A DNA stretch of 64,000 nt, from positions 9,333 through 73,332 of the forward strand of contig CAZCHH010000003.1 of NCBI GenBank assembly GCA_964498585.1. Direction: 5' to 3'. Each line of letters begins with the position of its first letter. Position 1 is the first letter of the stretch. The DNA is from an uncultured Hyphomicrobiales bacterium. Its GTDB lineage: Bacteria > Bacteroidota > Ignavibacteria > Kapaibacteriales > UBA2268. Shown here in pieces: positions 491 to 63,790 of this stretch. Position numbers and translations under genes: made by a program. The notes under the pieces were generated by a model. It was given only the letters and a program-made list of their open reading frames with translations. It had not been told where the DNA came from and searched no databases.

Positions 491-534
491 TATTTCTTTT
501 TTTTTAAAATATAATTTCATAAATTAAATATATT

Positions 535-3120: not shown

Positions 3121-3202
3121 GTATTAACGAAGGTCATCTCTGATGAATTTTTATTTCCATTCATACTAACAGCAAACTGTTAGCATTTAATTTCTCATCA
3201 AA

Positions 3203-9270: not shown

Positions 9271-9328
9271 AATACTAAGCAAAAAAAATCTAAACAAAAA
9301 AAATCTAAACAATGAAAATCTAAACTAT

Positions 9329-14527: not shown

Positions 14528-14574
14528 AGTTAAAAAAAGTAGTATATACTAATTTGTTTTTATATTTAGAATTA

Positions 14575-14900: not shown

Positions 14901-15121
14901 TCAACTATCGTGTAAACCTGATGGTTGATATATATTTTTTCGGATATTAATCATAGGTTTTACTAACAACTAAAGACCAATAACATCGCTTTTTTACAAC
15001 CAAAACTTTGCGAAAGTTAAAATCTAAACTTTCTAAACTTTTTAAAATTTATATCTTTTCATTTAACTAAAGCTTTATTCAGGTAATTCAGAAAAACTAA
15101 GTTGAAATTAAAGATAAAGAT

Positions 15122-16171: not shown

Positions 16172-16676
16172 CTAAAAACTAAGATAATTAAACATTACTG
16201 AACTTTATTCATTGGGAACAGGGGATGGGTGTTGAATTTGTTTCCGTAGTGAACTTTCAACAGCCATTTTTCTCTTCAATTTCCTTAAGCAATTCGTTAT
16301 AGCATCAAGCATTTGTTGTTTTGTATTTGTAGCGAAAAGTTTTTTTGGTGTAAAATCAGACATATTATTTCCTTTCTAATTAAAATAATATGCAAATTTA
16401 TGAAAAATGTTATAATTTTTTAGGAAATTTTCATATTTAGTAATAAAAGAAAAAATTAAATACGATTTTTTCCAATAAAATTTCGGCTAAAGGAGTTCAA
16501 ATGTTACAATATATTATCACAAATGGGGAAATTATGTTATTATTTCACTTTACGCATTCCCCTTTTGAGAGTAATGGCAGGGAGATAAGCGAATAATTCA
16601 AAATTTTTACATACATAAATATTTATTTAACTTATACAATCTTAAATATAAACTATAATAACTTTAATAATAAGAC

Positions 16677-16776
16677 CTTTTAACACCTCCCCTGCCCCTC
16701 CTTGTAGGAGGGGAATAAGAACTGTCCTGTGTTTTAGCGTTCCCCCTCCTAACAAGGAGGGGAAAGGGGAGGTGTA
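16677..16776. repeat. GC-rich ~100-bp palindromic (cruciform-capable) element, copy 1
   Basis: 'cacctcccctgcccctccttgtaggaggggaataagaactgtcctgtgttttagcgttccccctcctaacaaggaggggaaaggggaggtg'. Outer stem is cacctcccct/aggggaggtg plus two inner hairpins (cccctcc..ggagggg). The overlapping 64-aa ORF 16664..16858 is judged spurious. Confidence 0.8.
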
Positions 16777-19646: not shown

Positions 19647-19742
19647 ATTTTTATTGGATTATAATACCTTGACATATGTCTGTTATTATGAATTCCATAA
19701 TAAAGAAAATATTTTATTTAAATGGAGATGATATAATTTTAT

Positions 19743-19845
19743 ACTGTCATTCTGAGCATCAGCTAAAAATCTACTCAACCATCGAATTAATCCGATAATT
19801 GATATAGAAATATAAGATTCCTCATTTCGTATCGGAATCACAAGA
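19743..19845. repeat. MITE-like repeat element (degenerate copy of the tgtcattctga...gaatcaca family)
   Basis: 'tgtcattctgagcatcagc...gattcctcatttcgtatcggaatcacaag' is related to the elements at 28787, 38481 and 49516. Confidence 0.6.
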
Positions 19846-22800: not shown

Positions 22801-22936
22801 TAATCAACTCACGGCTAATATTTTCACTTAAAAAACGATTAAGCATATTTTGCAAATATGTTCTGTATGAATGTTCCGAACTTTCACTATTCGAGACAAA
22901 CTCCTTTAATATACTATCAATGTATTCTTTAAACAT
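19871..22936 (-). CDS. single-polypeptide Type IIL/IIG restriction-modification enzyme (MmeI-like): N-terminal PD-(D/E)xK nuclease, gamma-class N6-adenine methyltransferase and C-terminal target-recognition region
   Basis: N-terminal 'GRPDFKII...LLETKK' (D..ExK), 'GVYYTPEPVVSFIV', motif I 'LLDFATGTGTFL' and motif IV 'LGNPPYSV'. At 1021 aa it is comparable to MmeI-family enzymes. Confidence 0.65.
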   Translation of the reverse strand: MFKEYIDSILKEFVSNSESSEHSYRTYLQNMLNRFLSENISRELIIKHEPTQVEGKGRPDFKIITPNILTIGLLETKKLGTDLERTLNTEQIERYKQLSDNIILTDYLRFILLVKGDVVFDTTLCSVEDLKSKEIKLAKSKTEELSRLLKQFFEAEPEPIFKVETLAFKLAEKATFLREYCYIELEKERDETNLMQGVYEVFKESLLPLLETQYFSDIYAQTLTYSLFLAALNCDEPHKQLNRSSAFSLLPHSFPLIKELFHRLDDFPREITWAIDEIINILKVTDYTAIKKEFTDYRNKDQGFNDPFIYFYEDFLTNYDKSQRELRGVYYTPEPVVSFIVRSIEEILKVTFGLSDGLINKKVTLLDFATGTGTFLLNAFKLALEQAQTLGDRQTVNKILNEQIINNFYGFELLVAPYIVAQLKITEFIKELGYSLDESKRINIFLTNTLTNKEPQPFPIMPALSKEGKEANRIKNQDILVILGNPPYSVSSQNKAGFITDEKMITYKEAVRNEKNIQPLSDDYIKFIRFAHWKMENVKNGVIGIISNNSYIDGLIHKGMRLELMKTFNEIYIMNLHGSSRIGEKSPDGTKDENVFEIMQGVCISLFIKNPNKSNESTVNYYDLFGTKKSKYEFLWNNSLRTVKWNQIFPNDEFYFFVKKNWTNRDEYKKGYKIDEIFKIQSSGVKTHRDKFLIALQKELIEKRITTFLKLDKSEINRELGLNDTRDWKIKKVLEKGHFNKEKIIDYHYRPFDKRFLYYDFDFIEPGTNRFNVMQHILKGSVALAIPRQIKTNIWKHIFVTEFIGDIGFTKESTNFFPLYLYIDKNYISNGNDFLFNQEGKRDNFTKEFRHFIKNKYKNAYSPEQVFAYIYAVLHSPNFREKYNEFLRIDFPRVPFVDNEELFLELSNIGTELINAHLLKKFPVSVNCRSEGETDNFKVDSIKYENNRIYFNKNRYFSNVPKEIWEYKVGGYQVLEKWLSERKKLNHSLTVGDLQHFINVINVLEFTLQTMERIDKLLQMD

Positions 22937-23052
22937 AGATTATTTTTTACTCAACTTTCATTGTTAATAAAATATAATAAATATAAAGTAGTAGTGCATT
23001 ACAAATAAGAATATGGATTAAAATTCTTAGAAAATACTACTTTAATTAATAA

Positions 23053-23154
23053 AACTTTTTACACCTCCCCTGCCCCTCCTTTTTAGGAGGGGAATAAGAA
23101 CTGTACTGATTTTAAGCGTTCCCCTCCTACCAAGTAGGGGCAGGGGAGGTGTAT
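23053..23154. repeat. GC-rich ~100-bp palindromic element, copy 2
   Basis: 'cacctcccctgcccctcctttttaggaggggaataagaactgtactgattttaagcgttcccctcctaccaagtaggggcaggggaggtg' has a 16-bp outer stem and shares its central sequence with copy 1. Confidence 0.8.
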
Positions 23155-23200
23155 TTTATGCTTTTTATACCAAACCACTAACAATAATGGCAGTATAATC

Positions 23201-23300
23201 TGTCATTCTGAAGCGTAGCGAAGAATCTCACAAGTCATTGCTAATATAGGACTTGATTCTCAGTCATGCTATCAACAAGTTGTTCGCATGACTTAAAATA
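23201..23300. repeat. MITE-like repeat element (tgtcattctgaagcgtagcgaagaatctcacaagtcattg... plus the 'caacaagttgttcgcatgac' palindrome)
   Basis: Shares TIR and core sequence with elements at 28787, 38481, 42300, 58860, 61080 and 63700. The 'caacaagttgttcg(c/t)atgac' part recurs at 54420..54445. Confidence 0.7.
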
Positions 23301-23311
23301 TCTTCACTTTT

Positions 23312-25266: not shown

Positions 25267-25980
25267 ATGAAAGCAAAGATACTTTCAATTCTAATTCTAA
25301 TTTTTGCAGTAACCTATGCAAATTCACAAACTGCTGAAATGATTATCGGCAAGGCAATCAACGCTATTGGAGGCGAAAAATCCTTTAAAAATATTAATTC
25401 TGTTGAATATAATATGACTTTAACAGGTATGGGACAGGAAATGCCTATGAAATTCTATAAAAAAGGTGAAGATAAATTTCGTTTAGAGATGAACTATATG
25501 GGACAAGAAATGATTTCTGTCTTTAATGGAAAATCTGGTTGGACTAAAACTGCTGGAAATGTAATAGAAGTTCCTGAAGTTGCTTTAAATGAGTATAAAG
25601 AACAGTTAAAATCTCAAGTCGCAGCTTTTGATATGCCTTTTCTTAATTATAAGGAAAAAAATATTACCTTTGAATTAATTGGGGAAGAGCCAGTAAATGG
25701 CATAGATGCTTATAAAATTGAAGCTACTTCCGCTGATGGCAATTCTACTCTATATATTGAGAAAGCTACTAATTTACTAATTAAAGCTACTTCAGTTCAA
25801 AACATTAACGGACAAAATATTGAAGCTGATGTATATATGTCTGACTATAAATCAGTTGGTTCATTAAAAATGCCTCATAAAATTGAATTAAAAAGCAATG
25901 GCGAAAATTTAGTTAATATTGTATTAACTTCTTTAAAAATCAACGAAAATATTGATGACAGTTTGTTTCAAAAGCCATAA
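25267..25980 (+). CDS. secreted hypothetical protein (paralog A; same family as 27835..28575)
   Basis: Signal peptide 'ILILIFAVTYANSQTA'. The N-terminus and the C-terminus ('LKINENIDDSLFQKP') are near-identical to the paralog downstream of the E2 gene. Confidence 0.65.
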   Translation: MKAKILSILILIFAVTYANSQTAEMIIGKAINAIGGEKSFKNINSVEYNMTLTGMGQEMPMKFYKKGEDKFRLEMNYMGQEMISVFNGKSGWTKTAGNVIEVPEVALNEYKEQLKSQVAAFDMPFLNYKEKNITFELIGEEPVNGIDAYKIEATSADGNSTLYIEKATNLLIKATSVQNINGQNIEADVYMSDYKSVGSLKMPHKIELKSNGENLVNIVLTSLKINENIDDSLFQKP

Positions 25981-25994: not shown

Positions 25995-27617
25995 ATGAAA
26001 ATTGATGTTGTTATGCCAAAAATGGGCGAATCTCTTCAGGAAGGCACTATTATTCGCTGGCTCAAAAATGTCGGTGATAAAGTGGAACGCGATGAAATGA
26101 TTCTCGAAATCTCTACCGATAAAGTTGACACTGAAGTTCCTTCCCCGGTAACTGGGGTAATTACTAAAATCCTTGCTCAAGAGCAGGAAACTGTTGAAGT
26201 CGGAAAAGTTATTGCAGAAATTGGAACTGATGCCGAAAATGCCGTTGTTGAAAAAACTGCTGAAGTCCCAAAGGAAATTATATCGGAAGCACAGCCAGTA
26301 AAACGGACAGAATCCGCTTCTTTATCTGCTGAAAATACAATAGAAGTTGTTATGCCAAAAATGGGCGAATCTCTTCAGGAAGGCACTATTATCCGCTGGC
26401 TAAAGCAAGTGGGCGACAAGGTAGAACGCGATGAGATGATTCTCGAAATTTCTACTGACAAAGTGGATACTGAAGTTCCAGCACCTGCCGGCGGAATACT
26501 TGTTGAAATTCTTGCTCAGGAAAAAGAAATAATCGAAGTAGGAAAAGTAATTGCAAGAATTGCAACTGGTGATACTCCTGCTATTTCTCAAACTGCTGTA
26601 TCTGAGCAAAAGGCAGTTGAGGAGCAAACTACTGAAATACCAGCAAGTTCCGGCAACAGGTTCTATTCGCCGCTTGTTCGTTCTATTGCTTCAAGCGAAG
26701 GAATTACCCTTGAAGAGCTTAATATGATTCAAGGCAGCGGTGCAGACGGCAGGGTAAACAAACAGGATTTGCTCAGTTTTATAGAACAAAAGAAGCAAAA
26801 ATTTTCTATTACTCCCCAGCCACCGAAATCGGTTGTTAAGCCGGAACCAGCCCAGCCGGTTAAAGTTATTAAGCCAGCAATTTCTCCTGTTCCACTTGGC
26901 GAAGATAAAGTAATTATTCCGATGGACAGGATCCGGCAAATCATTGCTGAACATATGATTTTCTCTAAAAAAACTTCTGCCCACGTTACAAGCGTTGCTG
27001 AAGCAGACGTTACTAATATTGTAAAATTCAGAGAAAGTTACAAAGACGAATTTCAAAAGCAGGAAGGATTCAAACTCACTTATACTGCTTTCTTTTCCAA
27101 AGCATTGATTGACGGAGTTAAGCAATTTCCAATGGTAAATGTAAGCGTTGAAGAAAAAAATATAATCCTTCACAAACGCATTCATCTGGGTTTTGCTACT
27201 GCTCTTGAGGACGGCAATTTAATTGTTCCGGTAATCAAAAATGCAGATAGCTTAAATTTAAGTGGCATAGCACGTTCAATATTCGATTTATCAAGCCGTG
27301 CAAGAAGCAAAAAGCTAAATCCCGACGACATTCAAGGCGGAACAATAACACTAACAAACGTTGGCACTTTCGGAACACTATTCGGAACACCGGTAATTAA
27401 TCAGCCGCAGTGCGCTATAATTGGAGTTGGTGCTATTCAAAAGCGTCCTGTAGTCCGCGAATTCAACGGTGAGCATCTGGTCGTTGTTCGCGATATGCTA
27501 TACGTTTCTATAACTTATGACCACAGGGTAATTGACGGTATGTTAGCCGGTCAATGCCTTGCTGCAATTACAAGAAATTTAGAAAGTATGAATCCGGAAA
27601 AAGAATTCGGTATGTAA
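25995..27617 (+). CDS. 2-oxo-acid dehydrogenase complex E2 component (dihydrolipoamide acyltransferase) with two tandem lipoyl domains
   Basis: Duplicated 'VVMPKMGESLQEGTIIRWLK.VGDKVERDEMILEISTDKVDTEVP' lipoyl domains, a peripheral subunit-binding domain 'SPLVRSIASSEGITLEEL...GSGADGRVNKQDL' and a catalytic 'DHRVIDG'. Confidence 0.9.
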   Translation: MKIDVVMPKMGESLQEGTIIRWLKNVGDKVERDEMILEISTDKVDTEVPSPVTGVITKILAQEQETVEVGKVIAEIGTDAENAVVEKTAEVPKEIISEAQPVKRTESASLSAENTIEVVMPKMGESLQEGTIIRWLKQVGDKVERDEMILEISTDKVDTEVPAPAGGILVEILAQEKEIIEVGKVIARIATGDTPAISQTAVSEQKAVEEQTTEIPASSGNRFYSPLVRSIASSEGITLEELNMIQGSGADGRVNKQDLLSFIEQKKQKFSITPQPPKSVVKPEPAQPVKVIKPAISPVPLGEDKVIIPMDRIRQIIAEHMIFSKKTSAHVTSVAEADVTNIVKFRESYKDEFQKQEGFKLTYTAFFSKALIDGVKQFPMVNVSVEEKNIILHKRIHLGFATALEDGNLIVPVIKNADSLNLSGIARSIFDLSSRARSKKLNPDDIQGGTITLTNVGTFGTLFGTPVINQPQCAIIGVGAIQKRPVVREFNGEHLVVVRDMLYVSITYDHRVIDGMLAGQCLAAITRNLESMNPEKEFGM

Positions 27618-27834: not shown

Positions 27835-28575
27835 ATGAAAAATTTTCTATCATTAATATTTCTAATTTTTGCAGTAACTTATGCAAATTCACAAACCGCT
27901 GATTCAATTATAAGCAAAGCAATAGACGCTATTGGAGGTGAAAACGCTTTGAAAAATATTAATACCATAGAATATAATATGACTTTAACAGGTAAGGGAA
28001 TAGATATGTCTATGATATATATTAAAAAAGCAAATGATAAAATTCGTGTAGAAATTAATACTGATGATGAGAATGTGATTTTTATTATGAATGGAAAAAC
28101 TGGTTGGCTTATTAATTCTGATAAAGTAGATGAAGTAGATGAAGATGATTTAGACGAGCTAAAAAAGCAATATGAAAATCTTATTGGAGTTTTTAATACA
28201 TACGATTACATTAATAAAGAAAAAAATACTACTTTTAAATTAATAGAAGAAGAGCAGGTTAATGGAATAGCTACATATAAGATAGAAGCTACTACTCCAG
28301 ATATAGATTATACTCTATATATTGATAAAGTTACATTTCTGCTTGTTAAAATGAGTACAGTTCGATATATTCATCAACATTTTGATGATAATAATTTTAA
28401 AGAACCAAATTTTTTCGATTTATACTTCTCTGATTATAAATCAGTTGGTTTAATCAAAATGCCTCATAAAGTAGAACAAAAAATAAATGTAGGTGTAGAA
28501 TTAATAACTAATTATGTTTTAAAAAATTTAAAAATTAATGAAAACATTGATGACAGTTTGTTTCAAAAGCCATAA
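27835..28575 (+). CDS. secreted hypothetical protein (paralog B)
   Basis: Signal peptide 'IFLIFAVTYANSQTA' and shared 'EYNMTLTG', 'YKIEAT' and 'LKINENIDDSLFQKP' segments with 25267..25980. Confidence 0.65.
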   Translation: MKNFLSLIFLIFAVTYANSQTADSIISKAIDAIGGENALKNINTIEYNMTLTGKGIDMSMIYIKKANDKIRVEINTDDENVIFIMNGKTGWLINSDKVDEVDEDDLDELKKQYENLIGVFNTYDYINKEKNTTFKLIEEEQVNGIATYKIEATTPDIDYTLYIDKVTFLLVKMSTVRYIHQHFDDNNFKEPNFFDLYFSDYKSVGLIKMPHKVEQKINVGVELITNYVLKNLKINENIDDSLFQKP

Positions 28576-28786
28576 TTTCATAGCTTCTGAATCTAGTGTA
28601 GTGATTTGTTAAAAGACTTACTATCTTGTTCATTCCGAACCCCCTGATAAAAAAGACTTTTATTTAAATAATGATGACATAAAGAGCTATCCCCCGCTGG
28701 CGGGGGACAAAGATGTCATTGGTAATCCCCTTAGAAAGCAAATGCTTTATTTAAATTGAGATGACAAAATTTTATACAGTCATTCT

Positions 28787-28862
28787 GAGCGCTGCGAAGA
28801 ATCCAGAAAAATTTCTTTAATCACTATTCTCTGGATTCTTCACTTCGTTTCGGAATGACAGT
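28787..28862. repeat. MITE-like element with perfect terminal inverted repeats (gtcattctgagcg ... cgtttcggaatgac) and internal inverted repeat (gaagaatccag/ctggattcttc)
   Basis: Direct reading. It is flanked by other family members (28640..28760: 'gatgacataaagagc', 'atgtcattggtaatcc'). Confidence 0.8.
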
Positions 28863-28939
28863 GTAAAGTTTTGTCATTTCCTTTTAAAAAAATCATTTGC
28901 TTTATCTAATTGTTGTAATGACAAAAAAAAGTAATGATT

Positions 28940-38294: not shown

Positions 38295-38480
38295 ACATTA
38301 GCTCCGCTTTTTTTAGCAAATTAGTAATTTCTTCTTAAAATTCAAAAATATTTTAAGCTGTATTGTTCAAATATTCAAAATAAACATATTATTACTCTTT
38401 CCCAAGTTGCACTTGGGAATGTAACTTTCACAAAAGCTATGCTTATACCAAGTTGTTTTTAAAAATATAATATGTTTATT

Positions 38481-38563
38481 TGTCATTCCGATACGAAGTG
38501 AGGAATCTCAAATGTAGTGATAACAAAGATTTGTGAGATTTCTCGCTGCGCTTCGAAATGACA
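38481..38563. repeat. MITE-like element (TIR tgtcattccga/tcgaaatgaca; internal inverted repeat gaggaatctcaaa/tttgtgagatttctc)
   Basis: Direct reading. 'cccaagt(t)gcacttggg' hairpins lie at 38385..38411 and 38645..38673 on either side. Confidence 0.8.
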
Positions 38564-38879
38564 CTTTCATTTTATCTATGAATGCTACTTGGTATTAAAC
38601 TCTTAATTCATAAAAAGAATGTAAAGCACAGATTAAAAAGAAATCTTCCTTCCCAAGTGCAATTTGGGAAGGAGTTCAAAAATTTAAATATTTTTAATTA
38701 AATTGTTTTTTTTCTTGTAAATAAAAAAAAAATTTTGTATTTTAATTTAAGATGAAATAATTAAAAAATTGAATAAATAAATATAATTTCAAGAAGTAAA
38801 ACAACTTACTTTATAGTTTAAAGTGTAGATTCGTAAAGAACTAATTAATAAATTTTCTACAATAAGGAGTTGCTTCATT

Positions 38880-39563: not shown

Positions 39564-39609
39564 AGTTTTATTTAAGTGGTTTTCAAAAAATTTAATTTTG
39601 TTTATCATT

Positions 39610-39830
39610 CTGAACCCCAAAATAAAGAAGACCTTTATTTAAAGGTTGATGACATAACTAAATTTGTGTCATTCTGACGGATGTCAGAATCCATTTTAAA
39701 AATAGTGTTTATAGGTCATTAGTTATTAGTCATTTGTATTTTTACTAACAACTAATGACTGAAAAGAACCATTTTCTTAATTATTTAAGAAAACAAAGAT
39801 GGATTCTGGCATACGCCAGAATGACATACA
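39610..39830. repeat. composite cluster of palindromic repeat elements (ataaagaagacctttatttaaaggttgatgacataa; cattctgacggatgtcagaatc; ggattctggcatacgccagaatgac)
   Basis: The same modules occur at 14640..14800, 45060..45300, 49600..49830 and 61170..61380. Confidence 0.75.
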
Positions 39831-42130: not shown

Positions 42131-42504
42131 TTGTCTTGTAATTAATACTTGCACATATTATCCGAAAAAAGTGTTATTCTGAATCCCCTGATAAAGCAAG
42201 TGCTTTATTATAATGGAGATGACATAAGGTTTAGAAAGATTAGATGGTTTAGATAGTATAGGTTTTTAAACTTTCGTAAAGTTTTGCAAGACAAAAGTAA
42301 AGATGTCACTCATAGCCCATCGAAGAATCTCACAAGTCATTGTTACCAAAGAGTTGAGATTTTTCTAATGTAAAAATAAATCAAATATTTTATAAGCAAG
42401 TAACTTCATTAATTTTATGTAAAAACCAGAAAAACCTTTTATCAACTATAAGTTTAATACAATTTTCGTATTTTTGTATTTTTTGAAATAAAAATAAGTA
42501 AATT

Positions 42505-45054: not shown

Positions 45055-45300
45055 GTAAGTATCATTCTGACATACGTCAGAATGACACTTTTAGTTATGT
45101 CATTTCTATTAAATAAAGGTCTCTCTTTATCTGGGGATTACCAATGACATCTTTACTTTAAACTTTACGAAAGTTAAGAAACTTCCGCAAAGTAAGAAGA
45201 TTAATACTTTCGTAAAGTTTCTTAAGTTTGCGAAAGTTTAAAATATGTCATCTCCATTTAAATAAAAGTCTTCTTTTATCTAGGGATTCGAAATGAAAAG
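45055..45300. repeat. composite palindromic repeat cluster (tcattctgacatacgtcagaatgaca perfect palindrome; aaataaaggtctctctttatctggggatt; ctttcgtaaagtt inverted copies)
   Basis: Direct reading. 'ctttacgaaagttaag...cttaactttcgtaaag' forms a long inverted repeat. Confidence 0.75.
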
Positions 45301-45361: not shown

Positions 45362-45757
45362 TTAGTAATCTCTCATAAAGACACTCATTGTTATATTCAG
45401 CCAATTTCCTACCCACTTTTTATCAACAATTTTTGCTAAAATCAATTTTCCCGCATCCATTAACCGTGCTAAAATTTCGTTCTTATCCCGAGGAATATAA
45501 CCAAGTTTTTTCCCTTTTTGAGTTAAAATTAGAATAGCAAATTCATCAAATTGGTTTTCTGGTTCTCTAAGTGTAAGCAAAATCTCGTCTATCAAAAGAT
45601 GTGGCTCAATTTCAGTGAGATTCAAATAGCTTGTTCCTGCAACTTTACATTCAATCAAAAAAATTTCCTGAACAAAAGGCATTGGCAGGCCATCTGTTGT
45701 AAATGAACTTTGAATAATCGCAAGCAGATTCGGGTCAATTACAGCTAAATCCGACAT
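45362..45757 (-). CDS. standalone HIRAN-domain protein
   Basis: 'CKVAGTSYLNL...LTLREPENQFDEFAILILTQKGKKLGYIPRDKNEILARLMDAGKLILAKI...ITMSVFM' follows the HIRAN pattern (VvG..YY...L.R.P.N.yD.NAI.V....G..vGyl.r..A..L...mD...l...g...). It overlaps the upstream gene by 23 nt. Confidence 0.7.
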   Translation of the reverse strand: MSDLAVIDPNLLAIIQSSFTTDGLPMPFVQEIFLIECKVAGTSYLNLTEIEPHLLIDEILLTLREPENQFDEFAILILTQKGKKLGYIPRDKNEILARLMDAGKLILAKIVDKKWVGNWLNITMSVFMRDY

Positions 45758-46571
45758 TATTTTCGTATCCTAAAGTTTTTAGCACATTTTTATAAAAAAT
45801 TATTATTGATTCTAATTGCAGTTTTTCTATTTCTGTTTTTTCTTTTTCACTATTGATTAGGTTTTCATTTTCAATGATATTGATAAGAATATATGGTTTT
45901 TTACTTTTTACATCATTAATTTTTTCAATATAATATTTTATGCTTTTATCTAATTTATTTTTTATTTCTGATAAATCATTTTGAACTTCTGTGATTTTAT
46001 AATCTTCATCATTATCTAAAATTAATTCAATAGCTTTCAGTTCATCAAGATTACAATCTTTATATGCTTCGTAAACCCGCGTCCAAAGTAATTTTTGCAT
46101 TTCATTTAAATTTGGATTGATGTCCGGATGCAGTATTTTGCATAATTTTCTGAACAAACTTTTTAATTGAGTAGAATCAGGTTCGGTTTCTAATAACTTT
46201 ATCCTCTTTTCAGCATTTTTCAAAGCGGTAGCGTAGTTCCTTATTTCTCTTTCCCAATCCAGCGATTCCCGTAGCAAAATATTTTCAACTTCAGTAATAT
46301 TGACCGATTTATTTTGATTTACATAGCTTTGTATCAGTTCAATTTTCCTTTTAAGTTTTTTTGCTTCAAATTCAAGATAAAGTTTTTCAAGCTGATATTT
46401 ACCAATAATAGTAAAATATTGAGCTTCAATATTCTTGCAAACTGTGTTTATCAGCAGTTCATATTCATTAACAAGGATTGATAATTCCTCTTTCAAGTTT
46501 GAAATATCTTGTTTGAGTTTTTTATTCTTTTCATTTTCAATAATTTGCATATTTCGGATATCTTTATTCAA
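45735..46571 (-). CDS. coiled-coil protein with a C-terminal J-domain-like module (HPD motif)
   Basis: 'LKSLFRKLCKILHPDINPNLNEMQKLLWTRVYEAYKDCNLDEL' matches J-domain helices II-III with the invariant HPD. The long N-terminal heptad-rich region suggests coiled coil. Confidence 0.6.
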   Translation of the reverse strand: MNKDIRNMQIIENEKNKKLKQDISNLKEELSILVNEYELLINTVCKNIEAQYFTIIGKYQLEKLYLEFEAKKLKRKIELIQSYVNQNKSVNITEVENILLRESLDWEREIRNYATALKNAEKRIKLLETEPDSTQLKSLFRKLCKILHPDINPNLNEMQKLLWTRVYEAYKDCNLDELKAIELILDNDEDYKITEVQNDLSEIKNKLDKSIKYYIEKINDVKSKKPYILINIIENENLINSEKEKTEIEKLQLESIIIFYKNVLKTLGYENNVGFSCN

Positions 46572-46582
46572 ATGTAAAAAAA

Positions 46583-47092
46583 TTATGCACTTATATTATG
46601 TTGCCAGAATATTTTATCATTAATAAAAACTTTATAACTAATAAATGCGGCTAATGGGCCACCTATCCAAGCATTTGATTCTACAGTAACTTCTCTAATA
46701 TATTCATCATTTTTTTTATCATAAATAATATACATTGCAGATTCAAATAGTGTTCTATAGGAAACCCAGAAATTTTCTCCCCAATAATCTAAATCAAATT
46801 TTTCATTTGGGAATAAATTATTTTCACTATTTTCATTAATTAAGGATTCAGCGTATTTAAATAACTCAATTAATTCACTATCTTTTTTAATTATTATATG
46901 ATTAACAAGAGAAGTCAACGGAATTTGTAATTCATAATCATTATTAGAATATAGCAAAATCATTGTATTTTTCTTTAAAATTTTGGGGTCTATTAAATGT
47001 ATAGTTTTTTTATATTCTGATGAATTTTGGTTATAAGTTGAACAAGAACTTATAAAAATAATAATCAAAAGTAAATAAATTAGATTTTTCAT
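46583..47092 (-). CDS. hypothetical lipoprotein
   Basis: Signal peptide with 'ISSCST'. It lies 12 nt upstream of the J-domain gene. Confidence 0.5.
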   Translation of the reverse strand: MKNLIYLLLIIIFISSCSTYNQNSSEYKKTIHLIDPKILKKNTMILLYSNNDYELQIPLTSLVNHIIIKKDSELIELFKYAESLINENSENNLFPNEKFDLDYWGENFWVSYRTLFESAMYIIYDKKNDEYIREVTVESNAWIGGPLAAFISYKVFINDKIFWQHNISA

Positions 47093-47124
47093 AAAAACCT
47101 CACTTTCTTATAAATTTTATAATA

Positions 47125-47592
47125 CTACTTATTTTGATTTATCATAGATTTAACTAATACTTTTGTATCTATTACAGGAAGAATGAATTTATTTAAGAAA
47201 CTTCCCTGCGTTTTAGCAAAAATTATTCCTCTTGCAGTTGAGTATGTCATTCCTACTAATTCTGTCAATAAATCATCTGGCAAAGTGAAACTTTCATTGT
47301 TCATTTGAATTATTGAAGTTAAATTTAAAATTTTAAAATCACAAACTAATACTAATTCAATTAACTTTATATTTTTATTATTAAAAAGATAATTATTCAC
47401 TACAGTTAGTTGAATTTGAAAAATATTTTGTTCTTTTATGTAAGCATAAGCAAGATTAAATCCTAAATTTAAATTTTTTGAATTAAAATTAGAGGTAATA
47501 TCAAGGGCTGGTTCAATCAAGCTAAAGCGTCTTATTGAAATGTTGTTCAACTTGTAAGAAATTGTAATATTCTCATACTGTTTCGTATTCAT
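47125..47592 (-). CDS. SecB-like chaperone, putative TAC-system chaperone
   Basis: From Met 'MNTKQYENITISYKL...' about 155 aa. Segments 'FQIQLTVVNN', 'IELVLVCDFKIL' and 'MTYSTARGIIFAKTQGSFLNKFILPVID' parallel E. coli SecB ('VVLRVTVTAS', 'FLCEVQQGGIFSI', '[29 protein letters not shown]'). It sits immediately downstream of the HigA-like gene. Confidence 0.55.
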   Translation of the reverse strand: MNTKQYENITISYKLNNISIRRFSLIEPALDITSNFNSKNLNLGFNLAYAYIKEQNIFQIQLTVVNNYLFNNKNIKLIELVLVCDFKILNLTSIIQMNNESFTLPDDLLTELVGMTYSTARGIIFAKTQGSFLNKFILPVIDTKVLVKSMINQNK

Positions 47593-48055
47593 CTGCTTTT
47601 TCAAAATTAATGTTAGTAAAACATAGGTTTGATAAAAAATCATCATCTGAATTTGTTGTATTTTCTAAATCAATATTTTGATAATTAGAAATTCCCGAAT
47701 TTTCACCTAAATTTAATTGTATATTTATATGCTCGTAAAGATTGTCATTAAGATAGCCCAATTCGTCCTGCTTAATAATTTCTTCAATATCAATAAATTT
47801 TACTCTTGGAACTTTATCTATTGCTAATGCTAAATCAATAAATTTAGATAATCTATGGTCAAATTCTCCATTCAAAATCTGAGAGACGTAACCTTTTGTT
47901 ACATTTAGTTTTTGAGCAAATTGAATACGGGTTAGATTATTCTCTTTTAGGTATTCCTTAATAAGTTCGAATAATTCCTGCTGAATTTCACCAATCCAAT
48001 ATTCTCTGCTTTTAAGCAATTCAGCTCTTGTCATTTTCTTTTCTCCTGTATTCAA
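47573..48055 (-). CDS. XRE-family HTH antitoxin (HigA-like) with a ~75-aa acidic C-terminal extension, a candidate chaperone-addiction region
   Basis: HTH 'LTRIQFAQKLNVTKGYVSQILNGE'. It overlaps the toxin gene by 35 nt and has an extended C-terminus 'DDDFLSNLCFTNINFEKADEYETV'. Confidence 0.7.
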   Translation of the reverse strand: MNTGEKKMTRAELLKSREYWIGEIQQELFELIKEYLKENNLTRIQFAQKLNVTKGYVSQILNGEFDHRLSKFIDLALAIDKVPRVKFIDIEEIIKQDELGYLNDNLYEHINIQLNLGENSGISNYQNIDLENTTNSDDDFLSNLCFTNINFEKADEYETV

Positions 48056-48422
48056 GATATTGGTTAATAGTTTTTCTAAAATGATTTAAATCTTTCTTTT
48101 GACTTGTTTTATAACCACCAGTAATAACAATATTTCCGTTTTCTTTATCAATAAAATAATATAATCTTAAATGTTTTGTTTTTATTTCACATTCAGTAAC
48201 AAAAGTTTCCTTGCTATTAAGAATTCTAAATTGTTTTTCCGGCAACCTGCGTCCTGAAGCTAATACGTTCAACTTGTGATAAATTGAGTTTATTTCAGTT
48301 TTATAATTTTGCCTTGCCTTAATCTCAAAAACATCAAATTCACAATTTTCATCTTTTTGCAGTTTGAAAAAAATCAATTTCCCTTTAACAGCTTCAATTC
48401 TTATTAACGCAAATTTACTCAT
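48021..48422 (-). CDS. HigB/Gp49-like (RelE/ParE superfamily) toxin
   Basis: 133 aa with 'FRILNSKETFVTECEIKTKHLRLYYFIDKENGNIVITGGYKTSQKKD' (RelE-fold beta-sheet region). It lies upstream of, and overlaps, the XRE antitoxin gene in the HigB-HigA order. Confidence 0.6.
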   Translation of the reverse strand: MSKFALIRIEAVKGKLIFFKLQKDENCEFDVFEIKARQNYKTEINSIYHKLNVLASGRRLPEKQFRILNSKETFVTECEIKTKHLRLYYFIDKENGNIVITGGYKTSQKKDLNHFRKTINQYLEYRRKENDKS

Positions 48423-49431: not shown

Positions 49432-49515
49432 AAAATATTTTTAAAAAATTTAATCCACTAATAATATCTACTCAACTTTTCTAGTGTAATAATTCATTAA
49501 AAGACTTACTATTTG

Positions 49516-49830
49516 GTGTCATTCCGAAACGAAGTGAGGAATCTCACAACTCATTGTATCCACAGAACTTGAGATTCTTCACTTCGTTACCAATGACATC
49601 TTTTCTTGTCATTCTGACGGATGTCAGAATCCATCTTATTATTGTCCTGTCTTATTCGATATATGCTATCTTACGAAGCATTTGGGCTCGCCCAAATGTA
49701 ACAAGTGAGCAAGTTTACTTGCTTTCCTAAGATAGATTCTTCACTTCGTTTCAGAATGACACTTTTAGTTATGTCATTTCTATTTAAATAAAGGTCTTCC
49801 TTTATCTGGGGTTCAGAATGACAAAAAATT
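49516..49830. repeat. array of MITE-like and palindromic repeat modules
   Basis: Modules read directly: tgtcattccgaaacgaagtgaggaatctcacaa; gagattcttcacttcgtt; cattctgacggatgtcagaatc; cgaagcatttgggctcgcccaaatgtaacaagtgagcaagtttacttgc; attcttcacttcgtttcagaatgaca; aaataaaggtcttcctttatctggggttcagaatgaca. The same modules recur elsewhere in the window. Confidence 0.8.
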
Positions 49831-49853: not shown

Positions 49854-51242
49854 CTATTTTGAAAATCTGATAACTCCTTTGGGGCAGCCGACATAAGCAG
49901 TACCATCAGGAGCAATAACAATACCGGAGTAGTGATTATTATAAAAATACTCATCAGGCCCAGCTTTTTTTCTAAAAGCAAGTTCTCCGTTACTAGCTTT
50001 AACTGCAGTGAAATACCAGCCCTCCATATCCTTTGTATAAGTATATACTAAATCATTAACCGACGAATACTTGGAAATGAGGGAAGGAATAATTAAATTT
50101 GAAGTCCAGGCGATATTATAACTGCCATCTTTATTAAAATCAATTCTTGTTAAGCCGGGTTCTGAAAGCTTTCCAATAAAATCAACTACTTTTGTATAGC
50201 CGTAATTATTTTCAACAATAATGGAATTGTTAAATGCAATCAAAGAGTTTTCTGTAGCTGAAGCTCCGCTTGCAAACACAGGAACTTTGCACAGTAGCCG
50301 ATTAGAGCTAATCTGCTTCGCTCTTTTATAAACCAGGACATTCATTTGTGGCTCAGCATTATCGGTAATAGCAACGTAATCCTTTGAAATCAAAGTCGGA
50401 GTAGTCCCTGAACCTTGTGAAAACTGGCTTGGTTTCTTAACAGTTCCTCTATCATATTCTTCACGCCAGGAAATAACCGGTTTCCCATTATTATCAGAAT
50501 CTAACCTATATAAAGCATAATCAGATACGATAAACACACCACCAGTTTCATCAACTGCAAATGAATTAGCGATGGATTCTTTAACTTCAATATCAGAATC
50601 GAAATGTGATAATTGAACTGTATCTAATTTATTGCTGCTAACAATTCCCACAATGCCTTCTTCAGTAGCAAACCAAAGATTTCCATACCAGTCTGGTAAA
50701 GCAGATATTATGTGGCAGGGGTCCGGCAAAGAAGATAAATCATATTCATTTTCCAAAATAAATTTAGCTGGATTTCCTTCACAGCTTAATTTAAAAATTC
50801 GTTTATCTACAGTTGGAACGATAACTCTATAATTTTGGTCAAGATAGAAATATCCTGCACCTGATGGTGTTAAGTCAGTGCCTGTTGGAAGTTGATAGGT
50901 ATCAATTACTTCCAATGTCGTTGGTTCTAAAATATATAAGTTTCTTTTACTATCTGCACCTACTCCAAGAGTAACTAATTTGTTTTCTCTATTGAATGCA
51001 ATAGAAACACAAAGTTGATTTAAATTAGACATAGTGATATTCAGAATTTCACTATCAGGACCTTTTATGGAATAAGCATCTGTCATATATGCATCATTAT
51101 GGACATTACTTTTGCCGTTTGGTGCCATAAATGGATGAGTAGGGGCTGTCCAATCCATTTTGTTGTTAACTACATCAGTTGAATTTTCACAAGCAGCAAA
51201 TAAAAATGCAAAAACTAAAGCGAAAACACATAAATTCTTCAT
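49854..51242 (-). CDS. hypothetical lipoprotein (462 aa; probably a beta-propeller/beta-rich fold)
   Basis: Lipobox 'LFAACEN'. No recognisable catalytic motif. Confidence 0.6.
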   Translation of the reverse strand: MKNLCVFALVFAFLFAACENSTDVVNNKMDWTAPTHPFMAPNGKSNVHNDAYMTDAYSIKGPDSEILNITMSNLNQLCVSIAFNRENKLVTLGVGADSKRNLYILEPTTLEVIDTYQLPTGTDLTPSGAGYFYLDQNYRVIVPTVDKRIFKLSCEGNPAKFILENEYDLSSLPDPCHIISALPDWYGNLWFATEEGIVGIVSSNKLDTVQLSHFDSDIEVKESIANSFAVDETGGVFIVSDYALYRLDSDNNGKPVISWREEYDRGTVKKPSQFSQGSGTTPTLISKDYVAITDNAEPQMNVLVYKRAKQISSNRLLCKVPVFASGASATENSLIAFNNSIIVENNYGYTKVVDFIGKLSEPGLTRIDFNKDGSYNIAWTSNLIIPSLISKYSSVNDLVYTYTKDMEGWYFTAVKASNGELAFRKKAGPDEYFYNNHYSGIVIAPDGTAYVGCPKGVIRFSK

Positions 51243-51547
51243 AATTTATCCTATTATAAAGTGAATTTAGAAAATTATTATTTTCATTACATAGACAAAT
51301 CCTTGCTAGCAAACAATATTTGAGATTCCTAACTTAAAATGCTAAAGACTTATATATATTTACCTTTCAAAATCTTTACTAAAGTTAAAAATATAAACTA
51401 TTGTAATAATTCGTTAAAAGACTTACTATCTTGTGTCATTCTTCGCTCCGCTCAGAATGACAGAGTAAAATTATTTTCATTCACGAAACCTGTGGTTATG
51501 TCTTAGCACAATAACTTTACAATTATTTTTTATTGACGAAAACAAAA

Positions 51548-52627: not shown

Positions 52628-52795
52628 TTTATAATTGTTAATTGTTAATTGTTAATTATTAATGGTTTATGGTTTATAGTTTATTGTTTATAGTTTATAT
52701 TGTAATTTAGTCATTAGTTATTGGTCATTTGTCATTAGTATTGTTTTCAAATTATCACTTATAATTAATAATTAATAATTAATAATTAATAATTA
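52628..52795. repeat. block of short tandem repeats: (TTAATTG)x4, (GTTTATR)x5, (GTCATTWGT)x3, (ATAATTA)x5 ending at the methyltransferase stop codon
   Basis: Direct reading of 'ttaattgttaattgttaattattaatggtttatggtttatagtttattgtttatagtttata...ataattaataattaataattaataattaataatta'. Confidence 0.85.
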
Positions 52796-54298: not shown

Positions 54299-54598
54299 AA
54301 GTATTATTTATTTTTTTTCAACAAAAATAGTTAAAAATTATGGACAAGACAAAAGAAAAATGTAAAGAAAAATTCCAAACAAAATAAAGATTAGAAAGTT
54401 TAGAAGGTTTATTCCACTCATACAATCAACAAGTTGTTCGTATGACTGAAAAAATTCCTTCTCAAGTTCAACTTGGGAAGGAGAGAACCATCTAAACCAA
54501 TCAACCAATCAACTCCCATTCTTTTCTACTTGCAAAAACGCTCAAGTTTAGATAGTTTTGTATTTTAGATTTCGTAAAATTAGGAAATCAATCAAAAT

Positions 54599-58824: not shown

Positions 58825-58859
58825 TTAGATTTAACAAATTTTTTTAAGTTTTTGCTAAA

Positions 58860-59000
58860 ATGACTTGTGAGATTCCTCGCTGCGTTCCTAATAAACTACT
58901 TCGGCTTTTGTTGCACGTAAATATATGTAAAACATATAATTATAATAATTTCATTCCTAAACAGTAGTCATCGGATGACTGGCAGTCTTCCGATGACTAA
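58860..59000. repeat. repeat modules: MITE-like fragment (tgacttgtgagattcctcgctgcgttcc) and palindrome tagtcatcggatgactggcagtcttccgatgacta (second copy at 63873..63897)
   Basis: Direct reading. The second palindrome copy 'gtcggatgactggcagtcatccgatgat' is at 63873..63897. Confidence 0.7.
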
Positions 59001-59076: not shown

Positions 59077-61050
59077 TTACAACTGAAATGAAGCACCAAT
59101 TATGAAAGCCCGCTGTGGCATTGGATAATTTTTGATTATTTCATATTTTTCATTGAAAACGTTTAATGCTTCTGCCCGCAATTCAATTTTGTATTCGTTT
59201 ATTTTAATCGTCTTTGAAAAGAAAAGATTTGTAATAAAATTCGAGGGTATTACTGATTCCTTTGAATTATCTGCGATTGAATAAACAAAACTGGTATAGT
59301 TAAGCAACATCCCAAGATAATAACCATCAATATTAAAAACACAATTTGCATTTAATAGTTCTTTAGGAGTGTAAACAATTTGCCTGCCTTTTAAAACAGA
59401 ATTTTCGCTTTCGTCTGTGGTAGCTTGCAATGTGTATGCAATTTTCAAATCTATAAAATCGAAAAGAGAATCGTTTGAAATTGCAAATTCAATGCCTTTC
59501 GAAATCGCTTTTTTTATATTCATCGCCTCCCATGTAATTGGGCTTGTTGCAGTTGAAACAATTAAATCCTTCGTTATTATATTAAAAACATCTAAACCGA
59601 CTTTAAAACCAAATACTTTTGAATTTGCTCCAATATTAAATGAAGTGGATTTTTCCGTTTTCAAATTTGTTGAACCATAATTTAAATAATACATTTCGTT
59701 AAAACTCGGAGTGCGGTAATTGCTTGATACTGTGAACTTTAGCTCTAACGGAAAATTGTTTGCAGATATTAATGCACCGAGCATCGGAGATAATGTAGGA
59801 GAAAAATTTTCAACCCCATCAATGCGGAATCCGGTAAAGGCATTGCTCGTAAGCAATTCAGTATTATAAATTTGAAAATCATAATTGGAATAAAAACCAA
59901 TGCTATTCCTTTTAATGTAATCACCTACATTTTTCTGCAACATATTTCCACGCAAATCAGAAAAAGCTCCTTCCAAACCAACTTGCAAATTAGATTTTTT
60001 CTTTAAAAGATTGAAATTTAAATTGAACTTTATATCTCTGCTCGTGAAGTCAGTTTTTTTTAGTTCACTTGTAAATTTATCCAAATCAACAAAGTTGAAA
60101 TTTGAAAGCTTACCATAAACTGAAAATGAAATATTGCTGTTTTCAGAAAGAAAATAAGAATATTTTAAGGAACTGAGAAAGTCTTTTTCTTTGAGCCGTG
60201 CAACAGAATTTTCGATTGCTCCCTGAACGACAGCACCGGGCGAGCCACGCTCCGAACTTCTAATTAGAAAAAATCCATTAAGTTTGGAATTTTCAAACAA
60301 AGCACTTGCATTCAATCCACCCGAAATATTTTCAAAGTCAGCATTTTCGCGTTTTACTTCTTTTTCCTCGCCAAAATGAATCACATTAATAGGATAATTT
60401 CCTTTTGAACTTTGGTATTCAATCAAACCAGATATGCTAACAATTTTTATTGGAACAGAAATACTTGCAGCAGTTGATAAATCGTAAAAAGAACCATATT
60501 TGCTTTCTACTTTATATGATAGTTTATTGCTGTGTTTAGTGTTAATTTCAATTACACCGCCGATAGCACCAGTTCCATATATAGCAGAAAGGCCACCTTT
60601 GGAAATACTGATATTCTCTACAATTTTCATCGGAAGCAGAGATAAATCGAAAGTGGAATTTTGCGAGGAATTGAGTGTAATGCCGTCAAGTTGTATTAAT
60701 GTATGCTGAGCATTAGTTCCGCGGATAGAAACAGTTTTCAGCCCAGCCAAACCGCCATAGTTTTTCACGAAGAGACCTGGCGAAATATTGATTATATCGC
60801 TAAGTTGCATCGGTGATATAAGGTTGAAATAATCCGATTCAATTTTTGTATTTGATGTGTATTTGATTGATGTGTTGTTATCTTCTGCTTTTGCTTCTAC
60901 TTTTATTTCTGGAAACTGTTTAACAATAGAATCACTAAGTATATCAAAGTTATTTGGCTCAGCATTTAAGGAAATTGAAAGAAAGAAAAGGAGAAAGATT
61001 AGTGATAATAATTTTGAAATAGAAATTCCATAAAAATTTCTCCTTTTCAA
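59077..61050 (-). CDS. TonB-dependent outer-membrane receptor (probable TTG start at 61048..61050)
   Basis: Plug-domain region '...GLAGLKTVSIRGTNAQHTLIQLDGITLNSSQNSTFDLSLLPMKIVENISISKGGLSAIYGTGAIGGVIEIN' and beta-barrel C-terminus. A TTG start gives the signal peptide MKRRNFYGISISKLLSLIFLLFFLSISLNA. The extension to 61446 reads through repeat elements and is judged spurious. Confidence 0.75.
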   Translation of the reverse strand: MKRRNFYGISISKLLSLIFLLFFLSISLNAEPNNFDILSDSIVKQFPEIKVEAKAEDNNTSIKYTSNTKIESDYFNLISPMQLSDIINISPGLFVKNYGGLAGLKTVSIRGTNAQHTLIQLDGITLNSSQNSTFDLSLLPMKIVENISISKGGLSAIYGTGAIGGVIEINTKHSNKLSYKVESKYGSFYDLSTAASISVPIKIVSISGLIEYQSSKGNYPINVIHFGEEKEVKRENADFENISGGLNASALFENSKLNGFFLIRSSERGSPGAVVQGAIENSVARLKEKDFLSSLKYSYFLSENSNISFSVYGKLSNFNFVDLDKFTSELKKTDFTSRDIKFNLNFNLLKKKSNLQVGLEGAFSDLRGNMLQKNVGDYIKRNSIGFYSNYDFQIYNTELLTSNAFTGFRIDGVENFSPTLSPMLGALISANNFPLELKFTVSSNYRTPSFNEMYYLNYGSTNLKTEKSTSFNIGANSKVFGFKVGLDVFNIITKDLIVSTATSPITWEAMNIKKAISKGIEFAISNDSLFDFIDLKIAYTLQATTDESENSVLKGRQIVYTPKELLNANCVFNIDGYYLGMLLNYTSFVYSIADNSKESVIPSNFITNLFFSKTIKINEYKIELRAEALNVFNEKYEIIKNYPMPQRAFIIGASFQL

Positions 61051-61075
61051 GTTGAACTTGGGAAGGAGTGGAAAC

Positions 61076-61380
61076 AATGGTGTCATTCCGAGCGGAGCGA
61101 GGAATCTCACAAGTATTTGATACCACAAGAATAGAGATTCTTCACTTCGTTCAGAATGACATCTTTTCTTGTCATTCTGACGGATGTCAGAATCCATCTT
61201 GGAAAAGCAAGCGAGCTTACTCGCTTGATACATTTGGGCAAGTCCGAATGTATTAATGAAATAGCTAATATAGAATATCGACTGAACAAAAATAAGATGG
61301 ATTCTGACATCCGTCAGAATGACATATTTAGTGATGTCATCTTCATTTAAATAAAGGTCTTCCTTCATTGAGGATTCAGA
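61076..61380. repeat. array of MITE-like/palindromic modules (gtcattccgagcggagcgaggaatctcac; gattcttcacttcgttcagaatgaca; cattctgacggatgtcagaatc; gcaagcgagcttactcgcttgatacatttgggcaagtccgaatg; inverted cattctgacatccgtcagaat; aaataaaggtcttccttcattgaggattcagaatgaca)
   Basis: The same modules as at 49516..49830, in a partly inverted order. Confidence 0.8.
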
Positions 61381-61568
61381 ATGACAAGTAAAAAACAAAA
61401 TATATTTTATAAATCTAATTAAAATCATCAAACAAATAATTCGCAACTAAAAATTATTCAAATTTAAGAAAATTAAATGAAAATCTTATGTTTGGCTTCA
61501 ATTTCTATTTCTGTTTAAGAAAATAAAGATTAAATTTGTATTTTATTAAAAAAGAAAAAGATAAGTAA

Positions 61569-63578: not shown

Positions 63579-63639
63579 AGTTTAAGTAAGAGTAGTTTTA
63601 TACCAAACCGCTAACTAAAAGTGCAAAATCAAAATGTCA

Positions 63640-63790
63640 ATCCGAACCCCCTTATAAAAGAAGACTTTTATTTAAATAGAGAATGACCGACAAAAGTAAA
63701 GATGTCATTGGTAACGAAGTGTTGAATCTCAAGTATAGATGTAACAATGACTTGTGAGATTCCTCGCTACGTCCGGAATGACATAATATA
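63640..63790. repeat. MITE-like repeat modules (aaaagaagacttttatttaaatagagaatgac; atgtcattggtaacgaagtgttgaatctcaag...cttgtgagattcctcgctacgtccggaatgacat)
   Basis: Shares TIRs and internal inverted repeats with the 38481 and 49516 elements. Confidence 0.75.

Follow-up and report, generated by a model that had tools for sequence, protein, structure and literature searches.

What kind of repeat fills the spaces between the genes of this 64-kb stretch of DNA, and what spreads it? The stretch (64,000 nt of contig CAZCHH010000003.1, referred to below as the window) has a G+C content of ~30%. It encodes ordinary chromosomal genes, among them tgt, yajC, recN, trpS, tyrS, thyX, hprK, ribF and truB, together with a type-9-secretion BNR protein and a TonB-dependent receptor. 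Its coding DNA shares 81-83% identity with contigs of the metagenome-assembled genome (MAG) "Candidatus Kapaibacterium sp. CTOTU18620", which makes the host a relative of Kapabacteria. The exact Tgt protein occurred only on two short Logan metagenome contigs, both 100% identical to the window. An initial annotation, centered on positions 49516 to 49830, had described the intergenic DNA as saturated with six palindromic modules, five of them shuffled, lacking a transposase. We found that the hairpin repeats are real and abundant, and that they belong to a class already known, the CGTC-tagged repetitive extragenic palindromes (REPs), to which they add another lineage and some new detail. The best explanation, which we hold with moderate confidence, is that they are REP elements related to the repeats of Ssn nucleases, organized in Neisseria-like mosaics and probably handled as single-stranded DNA (ssDNA) hairpins by an Ssn-type nuclease whose gene lies elsewhere in the genome.

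The abundance of the repeats was evident against shuffled controls. The terminal motif GTCATTCYGA, with at most one mismatch, was present in 25-27 copies in the window compared with 2-4.5 in shuffles. Nearly all of these copies were intergenic, except for those within a spurious N-terminal extension of the open reading frame (ORF) 59077-61446. A 25-nt hairpin pattern gave 9 matches in the window and none in 100 shuffles. A base counted as repeated if it had two or more matches elsewhere, either within the window or in related genomes. By this measure 5,648 of 11,797 intergenic bases (48%) were repeated, and a repeat was found in 22 of the 29 spacers of at least 40 nt, in agreement with the saturation originally described. 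All 13 intergenic intervals listed at that time held at least one repeat copy. The inventory of the window comprised 9 hairpins, 13 type C elements with a further partial one at 11692-11722, and 9 full or partial type A elements, the types being defined below. No transposase was revealed by Pfam scans of the 44 window ORFs of at least 100 aa. Searches of the 12 ORFs without a Pfam match, 10 of them with NCBIfam and the other two with PADLOC, gave no transposase or integrase either, so the reported absence of these genes from the 64 kb held in all three scans.

The six modules resolved into three element types with common ends, (A)TGTCATTCYGA...TCRGAATGACA(T). Type A, the former module 1, is ~82 nt long and forms a single long hairpin with arms of ~30 nt and the ends TGTCATTCCGA...CCAATGACA; the copy at 49517-49598 had an ssDNA folding energy of -20.7 kcal/mol (z=-6.2). 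Type B consists of two inverted hairpins with 8-bp stems, TGTC-ATTCTGAC-GGAT-GTCAGAAT-CCA, placed around a variable interior. It absorbs three of the proposed modules: modules 2 and 3 are the same hairpin in opposite orientations, and module 4 is one of several interiors. The modules were thus genuine repeats, but these three were not independent. The interior was in some cases a linker of 15 nt, in others a palindrome of (GTCATTA)n heptamers or the module 4 hairpins GCAAGTGAGC/CATTTGGGC, at times with add-on hairpins. At least three main interior families and the add-on modules sit between identical hairpin pairs. Type C, the former module 5, is 52-53 nt long. Its inner 7-bp stem showed compensatory changes at one pair (C:G 20, G:C 19, U:A 4), with a covariation score of 0.186 versus 0.091 that was reached in 0 of 500 shuffles (64 copies). 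Types A and C both bear the TGTCATTC ends found on type B, and all units folded as ssDNA with z values from -2.8 to -8.7. A larger inverted-repeat element, D, has the form ATACCAAGTTG...CNACTTGGTA. Module 6 and a G+C-rich palindrome (ACACCTCCCCTGCCCCTCC...GGAGGGG..., at 16655-16745 and 23034-23166) are separate families without the common ends.

The focal cluster contains all three types. A type A element of 82 nt (49517-49598, no strand assigned; nhmmer E=3e-21) is followed by a chimeric type B unit on the plus strand (49607-49761) and a 52-nt type C element, also on the plus strand (49772-49823; nhmmer E=4e-15). The chimeric unit starts with a hairpin of family CGTC-1 (49606-49638) and has the CATTTGGGC.../GAGCAAG... 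hairpins of module 4 as its interior. At its right end, a type A arm (49734-49761) replaces the usual second hairpin, and the arm at 49516-49544 is complementary to 49734-49762 at 93%. Upstream, a module that we call U (CTAGTGTAATAATTCATTAAAAGACTTACTAT..., 49481-49516, plus strand) is fused to the left end of type A; it recurs directly at 51398-51441, and a third copy lies at 28593-28636. The order A-B-C is repeated in a second composite at 61081-61386, formed by A (61081-61161), a head-to-head B pair (61170-61324) and C (61335-61386), and the same order was seen in related MAGs. Since A-B-C recurs as a composite of ~306 nt, shuffling is less free than the initial annotation claimed.

The type B hairpin placed the repeats in a known class. 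CGTC-tagged REPs, described by Di Nocera, De Gregorio and Rocco in 2013, have an unpaired CGTC tag, often TGTC and in family CGTC-1 also CCTC, and a stem of 8-9 bp that opens with A/T pairs (PMC3733652). They further show a loop of 4-5 nt and a CCA tail, occur mainly as head-to-head dimers and have no linked transposase; they are known in Proteobacteria, Chlorobi, Bacteroidetes, Spirochaetes and Thermotogae (PMC3733652). We examined the hairpin anatomy in 107 low-GC copies, which were collected with a pattern that allowed up to two mismatches and are therefore biased towards conservation. The tag was TGTC in 83 copies (78%) and CGTC in 13 (12%). The first stem position was A:T in 106 copies and the second T:A in all 107, and each of the eight positions was paired in at least 95%. 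Position 7 read A:T in 76 copies and G:C in 26, with a mismatch in only 5. The 4-nt loop, GNAT, read GGAT in 41 copies, GTAT in 36 and GAAT in 27, and 94 of the 107 copies (88%) had the CCA tail. Hairpin pairs were head-to-head in 35 cases, tail-to-tail in 2 and in tandem in 5. In every feature that defines family CGTC-1, the type B hairpin agreed with the published description, and it is a member of this class. The spacing between facing tags (ATGAC-N-GTCAT) in the window and the Kapabacteria loci was also constrained, with a peak at 10 nt (32 cases) followed by 12-13 nt, where ~1 case per length was expected.

The initial annotation had called the elements MITE-like. As classical miniature inverted-repeat transposable elements (MITEs), they would be deletion derivatives of an insertion sequence (IS) whose terminal inverted repeats read TGTCATTC, and the DDE transposase of that IS would move them in trans. 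Such an origin would suit the terminal inverted repeats, the unit lengths of 50-160 nt and the high copy number, as well as the nesting of A inside D and the recurrence of composites. The target sites told a different story. Among 90 units (65 C, 17 A and 8 B), target-site duplications, the check originally proposed, were not found beyond a random-pairing control; the flanks favored AAAGA before and TCTTT after the unit, which prolongs the inverted ends. No IS with matching ends was present in the ~475 kb examined, a partial coverage of the genomes. Beyond the window, which lacks a transposase, no transposase ORF recurred in 360 kb of related loci; when the multi-copy ORFs of 60 related loci were inspected for one, they proved to be histidine kinases, acyl-CoA dehydrogenases, OmpA/VWA proteins and toxins. 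Moreover, one pair of ends encloses many unrelated interiors, unlike the deletion derivatives of a single IS. We consider the MITE origin improbable and have dropped the label.

In another explanation, the repeats are selected primarily as transcripts, as terminators, mRNA stabilizers or small RNAs. Their intergenic location and stable hairpins, together with the compensatory changes, would be expected of functional RNA. However, the elements showed no orientation preference, with type C in sense twice and antisense three times in co-directional spacers, and copies occurred in divergent spacers such as 61071-61568. The stems are A+T-rich without a trailing T-run, and no Rfam family matched at gathering scores or at E<=1. 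A terminator role for type C was rejected on the absence of orientation bias and of a T-run, and a primary role of the repeats as functional RNA appears very improbable.

A scan for GTCATTCTGRCNNATGYCAGAATCC in 185,579 species-representative genomes revealed how far the hairpin extends. The exact 25-mer was found at more than 90 loci, a lower bound, among the matches listed. About 60 of the listed loci came from two low-GC MAGs, the Kapaibacterium MAG and CAZCLJ01, both of which have the A, B and C architecture. The other ~30 came mostly from sulfur-oxidizing Gammaproteobacteria (Thiogranum, Sedimenticola, Thiohalobacter, Thiodiazotropha and others) with a G+C content of 45-63%, and these carry cGTCATTCTGGCGnATGCCAGAATCCAg. 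No hairpin copy was found in the viral contig collection. The elements are spread genome-wide within a narrow Kapabacteria lineage, so the copies are not restricted to the window. Type A elements were present in a relative with 90% RibF identity. Relatives with 78% RibF identity had no elements in up to 11 kb, and their contigs ended in a different G+C-rich repeat. No elements were found in 13 metagenome loci with homologues (56-72% identity) of the 462-aa protein encoded next to the focal cluster, which shows that the repeat bloom is lineage-restricted. None of these 13 loci was syntenic, and they were unusable as empty-site comparisons.

The CAZCLJ01 MAG is deposited as 'uncultured Hyphomicrobiales bacterium SRP192927_co3_222' (for example, loci L007, L013-L015, L017-L022 and L026). 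Because it has a G+C content of 30-35% and the same Kapabacteria-type A/B/C elements, this label is very likely wrong.

The linkage of the hairpin to a nuclease gene came from the other phylum. In Neisseria, Chenal et al. (2025) described the NTS repeat, CGTCATTCCCGCGMAVGCGGGAATCYRG, and its partner SsnA, a small single-domain GIY-YIG nuclease that binds and cuts NTS only as ssDNA, 3 nt 5' of the tag (PMC11893778). Cutting needs the three bases before the palindrome and binding needs the C after it, and the ssn gene is typically bracketed by the repeats as NTS-ssn-NTS (PMC11893778). With respect to these critical bases, the GTC before and the C after the palindrome were kept in at least 96% of our 107 copies. 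The identical hairpin is linked to ssn-like genes in other phyla: in 3 of the ~30 gammaproteobacterial loci among the matches listed (L009, L066 and L071), a gene for a 96-aa single-domain GIY-YIG protein (PF01541) lies at most ~100 nt from it, with hairpin pairs arranged tag-to-tag on both sides of the gene, which corresponds to the NTS-ssn-NTS order. These loci had been retrieved through the hairpin pattern alone, independently of the Ssn paper. In L066, the tag-to-tag spacing is 10 nt on both sides of ssn, which is also the main spacing between neighboring units of the window and the Kapabacteria loci.

The palindromic ends had led the initial annotation to suggest a partner of the IS200/IS605 class, TnpA/TnpB, encoded elsewhere. 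In a related form, the elements would be REPIN-like and mobilized by a single-copy REP-associated tyrosine transposase (RAYT) or an IS200/IS605-type HUH tyrosine transposase outside the window. The hairpin-forming ends and the inverted doublets resemble REPINs, and the lack of target-site duplications is what HUH enzymes predict. The tag, however, is (C/T)GTC and not GT[AG]G, and in the published survey CGTC repeats never flank a tyrosine transposase, even where the species has one (PMC3733652). No Y1 transposase was detected in the window or the low-GC loci; in particular, tblastn with six RAYT/TIRYT sequences (PMC3733652 supplement) gave no match there. The sole match (L090) was 6 kb from a hairpin and in another organism. 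It is a TIRYT-type Y1 tyrosine transposase (441-1118, minus strand), 50% identical to a Pseudomonas example, in a genome of 39% G+C, and showed no sign of linkage. Mobilization by a RAYT or HUH enzyme is in our view unlikely. Because a GIY-YIG gene adjoins the identical hairpin in the three gammaproteobacterial loci, an Ssn-type nuclease is a better candidate partner than TnpA/TnpB.

Several observations weigh against the involvement of an Ssn-type nuclease in the Kapabacteria lineage. Regular-expression and tblastn searches of the 64-kb window and of ~360 kb of low-GC loci, only part of each genome, revealed no ssn-like GIY-YIG gene; a small gene flanked by repeats is apt to end up on a tiny contig that is lost in binning. 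The gammaproteobacterial GIY-YIG protein was assigned to cd10448 (Ssn) by its size, single domain and flanking hairpins, and not by comparison with SsnA. No named match in PDB or NCBIfam tied it to SsnA, and the homologue search with this protein took in its closest 120 relatives. The published pattern for Ssn-related motifs (SRMs), the other name under which this superfamily is described, HGTCWYN(0-2)YYVSBRHN(0-5)WNVSBRGN(0-2)RNCYNB, matched one of the nine window copies (39799-39826; 0.02 in shuffles). Only the G:C variant of the hairpin fits this pattern, and the commoner A:T variant misses one S position. Types A and C match the hairpin at the terminal ~10 nt only. Finally, subfamily structure or hairpin-templated repair, rather than selection, could account for the stem covariation of type C.

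With these points considered, we still favor the Ssn-related explanation and infer that this lineage has an active Ssn homologue. In this model, the hairpins would extrude when the DNA becomes single-stranded. A small GIY-YIG nuclease of the Ssn type, encoded elsewhere in the genome, would bind them and cut a few bases 5' of the tag, the expected substrate of the putative homologue being single-stranded TGTCATTCTGACGGATGTCAGAATCCA. The putative cd10448-type gene would be present in one or a few copies, bracketed by TGTCATTCTGRC hairpins. Breaks near the tags and recombination between the common ends would then allow arrays to grow, shuffle and turn over. Classical cut-and-paste transposition is not part of the model.

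Turnover of the arrays was visible in the one orthologous spacer that we compared, in a relative whose DNA is ~81% identical. The window spacer upstream of the HAD-like gene (13973-14527), at 14528-15121, contains an array (14576-14894) of C on the minus strand (14576-14628), B (14639-14792), a second C on the minus strand (14801-14852) and a solo hairpin (14865-14894). The orthologous spacer in the Kapaibacterium MAG (L032) contains another hairpin and, after it, D with A-B-C inside. The window copy of D (38450-38605, delimited by comparison with L032) encloses type A alone (38481-38563). Together, the contents of the two spacers and the nesting in D indicate that element content turns over between species and that the elements are nested. 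The copies are thus not static; a lack of insertion polymorphism between related strains had been named as an outcome that would refute the initial description.

Bentley et al. (2007) described Neisseria intergenic mosaic elements (NIMEs), in which dRS3 pairs surround units of 50-150 bp from over 100 families and the make-up of the arrays varies at syntenic positions, and stated that NIME arrays had not been seen outside Neisseria (PMC1797815). Architecture of this type was found in the window at 14576-14894, 49517-49823 and 61081-61386. The repeats might be rearranged by a recombinase alone, with no dedicated nuclease involved, a model in keeping with the NIME-like architecture, the dynamic arrays at syntenic positions and chimeric units such as 49607-49761. 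The gene at 49854-51242, which is bracketed by 44-nt direct repeats and is non-syntenic in relatives, points the same way. Neither the window nor the loci showed a recombinase gene, however, and the fixed tag-to-tag spacing and conserved tag and tail fit the recognition features of Ssn. We give the nuclease-free model a small chance, and it is compatible with the Ssn-related explanation rather than exclusive of it. In a more specific version of that explanation, the tagged end would be the common terminus of modular cassettes A, B and C, which a small ssDNA nuclease would excise and rejoin at a fixed distance from the tag. We regard this version as rather unlikely. If it held, these would be the first CGTC elements whose means of mobilization could be worked out, and NIME-type arrays would for the first time be known from outside Proteobacteria. 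That Kapabacteria with 30% G+C and Gammaproteobacteria with 50-60% G+C have exactly the same 25-nt hairpin would then be due to constraint from a conserved protein or to its horizontal transfer.

The way in which CGTC-tagged repeats spread has been a puzzle since 2013, as they have no linked transposase. The description of a nuclease partner came only in 2025 and concerned mainly Proteobacteria. A Kapabacteria lineage with half of its intergenic DNA made up of such repeats would be a useful second system in which to ask whether nucleases of the Ssn type build and shuffle the arrays. Its clear unit boundaries, fixed junction spacing and close relatives without elements make it suitable. The repeats also have practical effects. 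They break short-read assemblies, and public contigs stop at cluster boundaries, such as Logan contig L001, which ends at 61162, one base past a type A unit. They further yield false ORFs and false N-terminal extensions in annotation. In ORF 59077-61446, the first ~132 codons translate the repeat cluster 61081-61386, with peptides such as MDSDIRQND and CHSERSEES, which confirmed the suspected artefact in the TonB-receptor ORF. The true start of the receptor is likely a TTG at 61050, giving MKRRNFYGISISKLLSLIFLLFFLSISLNA and then a signal peptide. The module 6 hairpin at 61032-61074 overlaps this probable start and a purine-rich stretch, and could occlude translation initiation of the receptor gene. 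This hairpin (CTCCTTCCCAAGT...ACTTGGGAAGGAG) has further copies at 3195-3237, 38638-38680 and 54447-54489.

The remaining repeat loci of the window combine the same elements; the clusters as wholes have no strand assigned. At 39605-39826, C on the minus strand (39605-39654) precedes a B unit (39667-39826) with the (GTCATTA)n heptamer palindrome as its interior. The cluster 28630-28923 has two C copies on the minus strand (28630-28679 and 28714-28766), a variant A (28779-28860) and C on the plus strand (28872-28923). A solo palindromic hairpin (45064-45088) and two C copies on the plus strand (45098-45149 and 45246-45296) make up 45064-45296. Elsewhere, C on the minus strand is accompanied by type A: at 42172-42365 (C 42172-42224, partial A 42304-42365), 63635-63783 (C 63635-63687, A 63703-63783) and 19682-19841 (C 19682-19731, degenerate A 19746-19841). 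Partial type A elements lie at 23201-23256 and 58846-58892, and 51430-51462 contains a 29-nt mini-hairpin with type A ends (TGTCATTCTTCGCTCCGCTCAGAATGACA).

Some neighboring genes are bordered by these clusters. The 44-nt direct repeats at 49481-49524 and 51398-51441 (91% identical) bracket the focal cluster and the 462-aa gene (49854-51242). Its homologues in the 13 metagenome loci are not beside truB or ribF, and the neighbors of ribF differ in close relatives; recombination at the repeats may have brought the gene here. A 1021-aa Type IIG/ISP restriction-modification enzyme (19871-22936) has repeat clusters on both sides (19682-19841 and 22937-23311), an arrangement that resembles the repeat-gene-repeat order in Neisseria. 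The region 45362-48422, with the cluster 45064-45296 on one side, contains six small minus-strand genes and the lowest G+C content of the window (~25%). Their products include a HIRAN-domain protein (PADLOC candidate PDC-M03B), a PDC-M64C match and a helix-turn-helix protein, and the region may be a defense island.

Further features were noted. A+T-rich tandem arrays unrelated to the hairpin families occupy 3432-3783, 8535-8626, 9260-9335 and 52634-52795. A 21-mer is present in 11 copies and AGATTAGAA in 10, the latter from the 3' end of a Cache-domain ORF; a 15-mer array runs into the start of pyrB, and 7-mer arrays lie between rbfA and a methylase gene. The contigs of the relatives with 78% RibF identity end in a repeat (TCCCCCCGGCCCCCTTTTTCAAAGG) similar to the G+C-rich palindrome of the window. 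Two LolA-like paralogues (25267-25980 and 27835-28575, 73-79% DNA identity in parts) flank an E2 acyltransferase gene, in which the lipoyl domain is duplicated (26000-26232 and 26339-26571). Inside an S41 peptidase gene lies a match to Rickettsia sRNA47 below the Rfam threshold (18061-18177, minus strand; 51 bits, gathering 60; E=5e-10), which is probably conserved coding sequence rather than an RNA gene. In several Gammaproteobacteria (loci L004, L034, L047, L054, L055, L058, L072, L076, L090 and L092), a conserved stretch of ~25 nt, GGGAAGCTCTGATTAATTC..., precedes the hairpin. A second related hairpin, GGATACCGGC...GCCGGTATGAC, often follows the first, which suggests a larger conserved composite element in those genomes.

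Compared with known systems, the repeats resemble REPINs/RAYTs and the mosaic BIMEs of Escherichia coli in their inverted hairpin doublets, their mosaics with other motifs and the lack of target-site duplications. In those systems the tag is GTAG and the repeats flank a RAYT gene; neither feature was seen here. The survey that placed dRS3/NTS of Neisseria and RPE-6 of Rickettsia in family CGTC-1 assigned RPE-4 to the sister family CGTC-4 (PMC3733652); our elements belong to the same superfamily as RPE-4 and RPE-6, and the host is likewise low in G+C. Unlike RPEs, which often lie in frame within genes, the copies here are intergenic save for artefactual ORF extensions. With NTS and SsnA they share the hairpin design, a GTC ahead of the palindrome and a C after it, the identical 25-mer on both sides of ssn-like genes in the three gammaproteobacterial loci, and a copy number that extrapolates to hundreds per genome. 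They differ in that no ssn gene was found in the window and ~360 kb of low-GC loci, and in an A+T-rich stem that mostly departs from the search pattern at one position.

The agreement with CGTC-1 extends from the tag, the AT-starting 8-bp stem, the 4-nt loop and the CCA tail to the head-to-head dimers, the extragenic location and the lack of a linked transposase. In the survey of that family, large arrays were rare and mainly confined to Neisseria and Wolbachia, whereas most copies here are in arrays; two extra families with tagged ends, A and C, are present, and Kapabacteria were not among the groups surveyed. NIMEs likewise have inverted dRS3-type hairpins bounding units of 50-150 nt, many interior families and a content that varies at syntenic sites. 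The present arrays differ from them in occurring in another phylum at 30% G+C, and in that A, a long hairpin, and C, with its 52 nt, carry only half-site ends. The type B unit is the equivalent of the Neisseria dRS3-RS-dRS3 arrangement.

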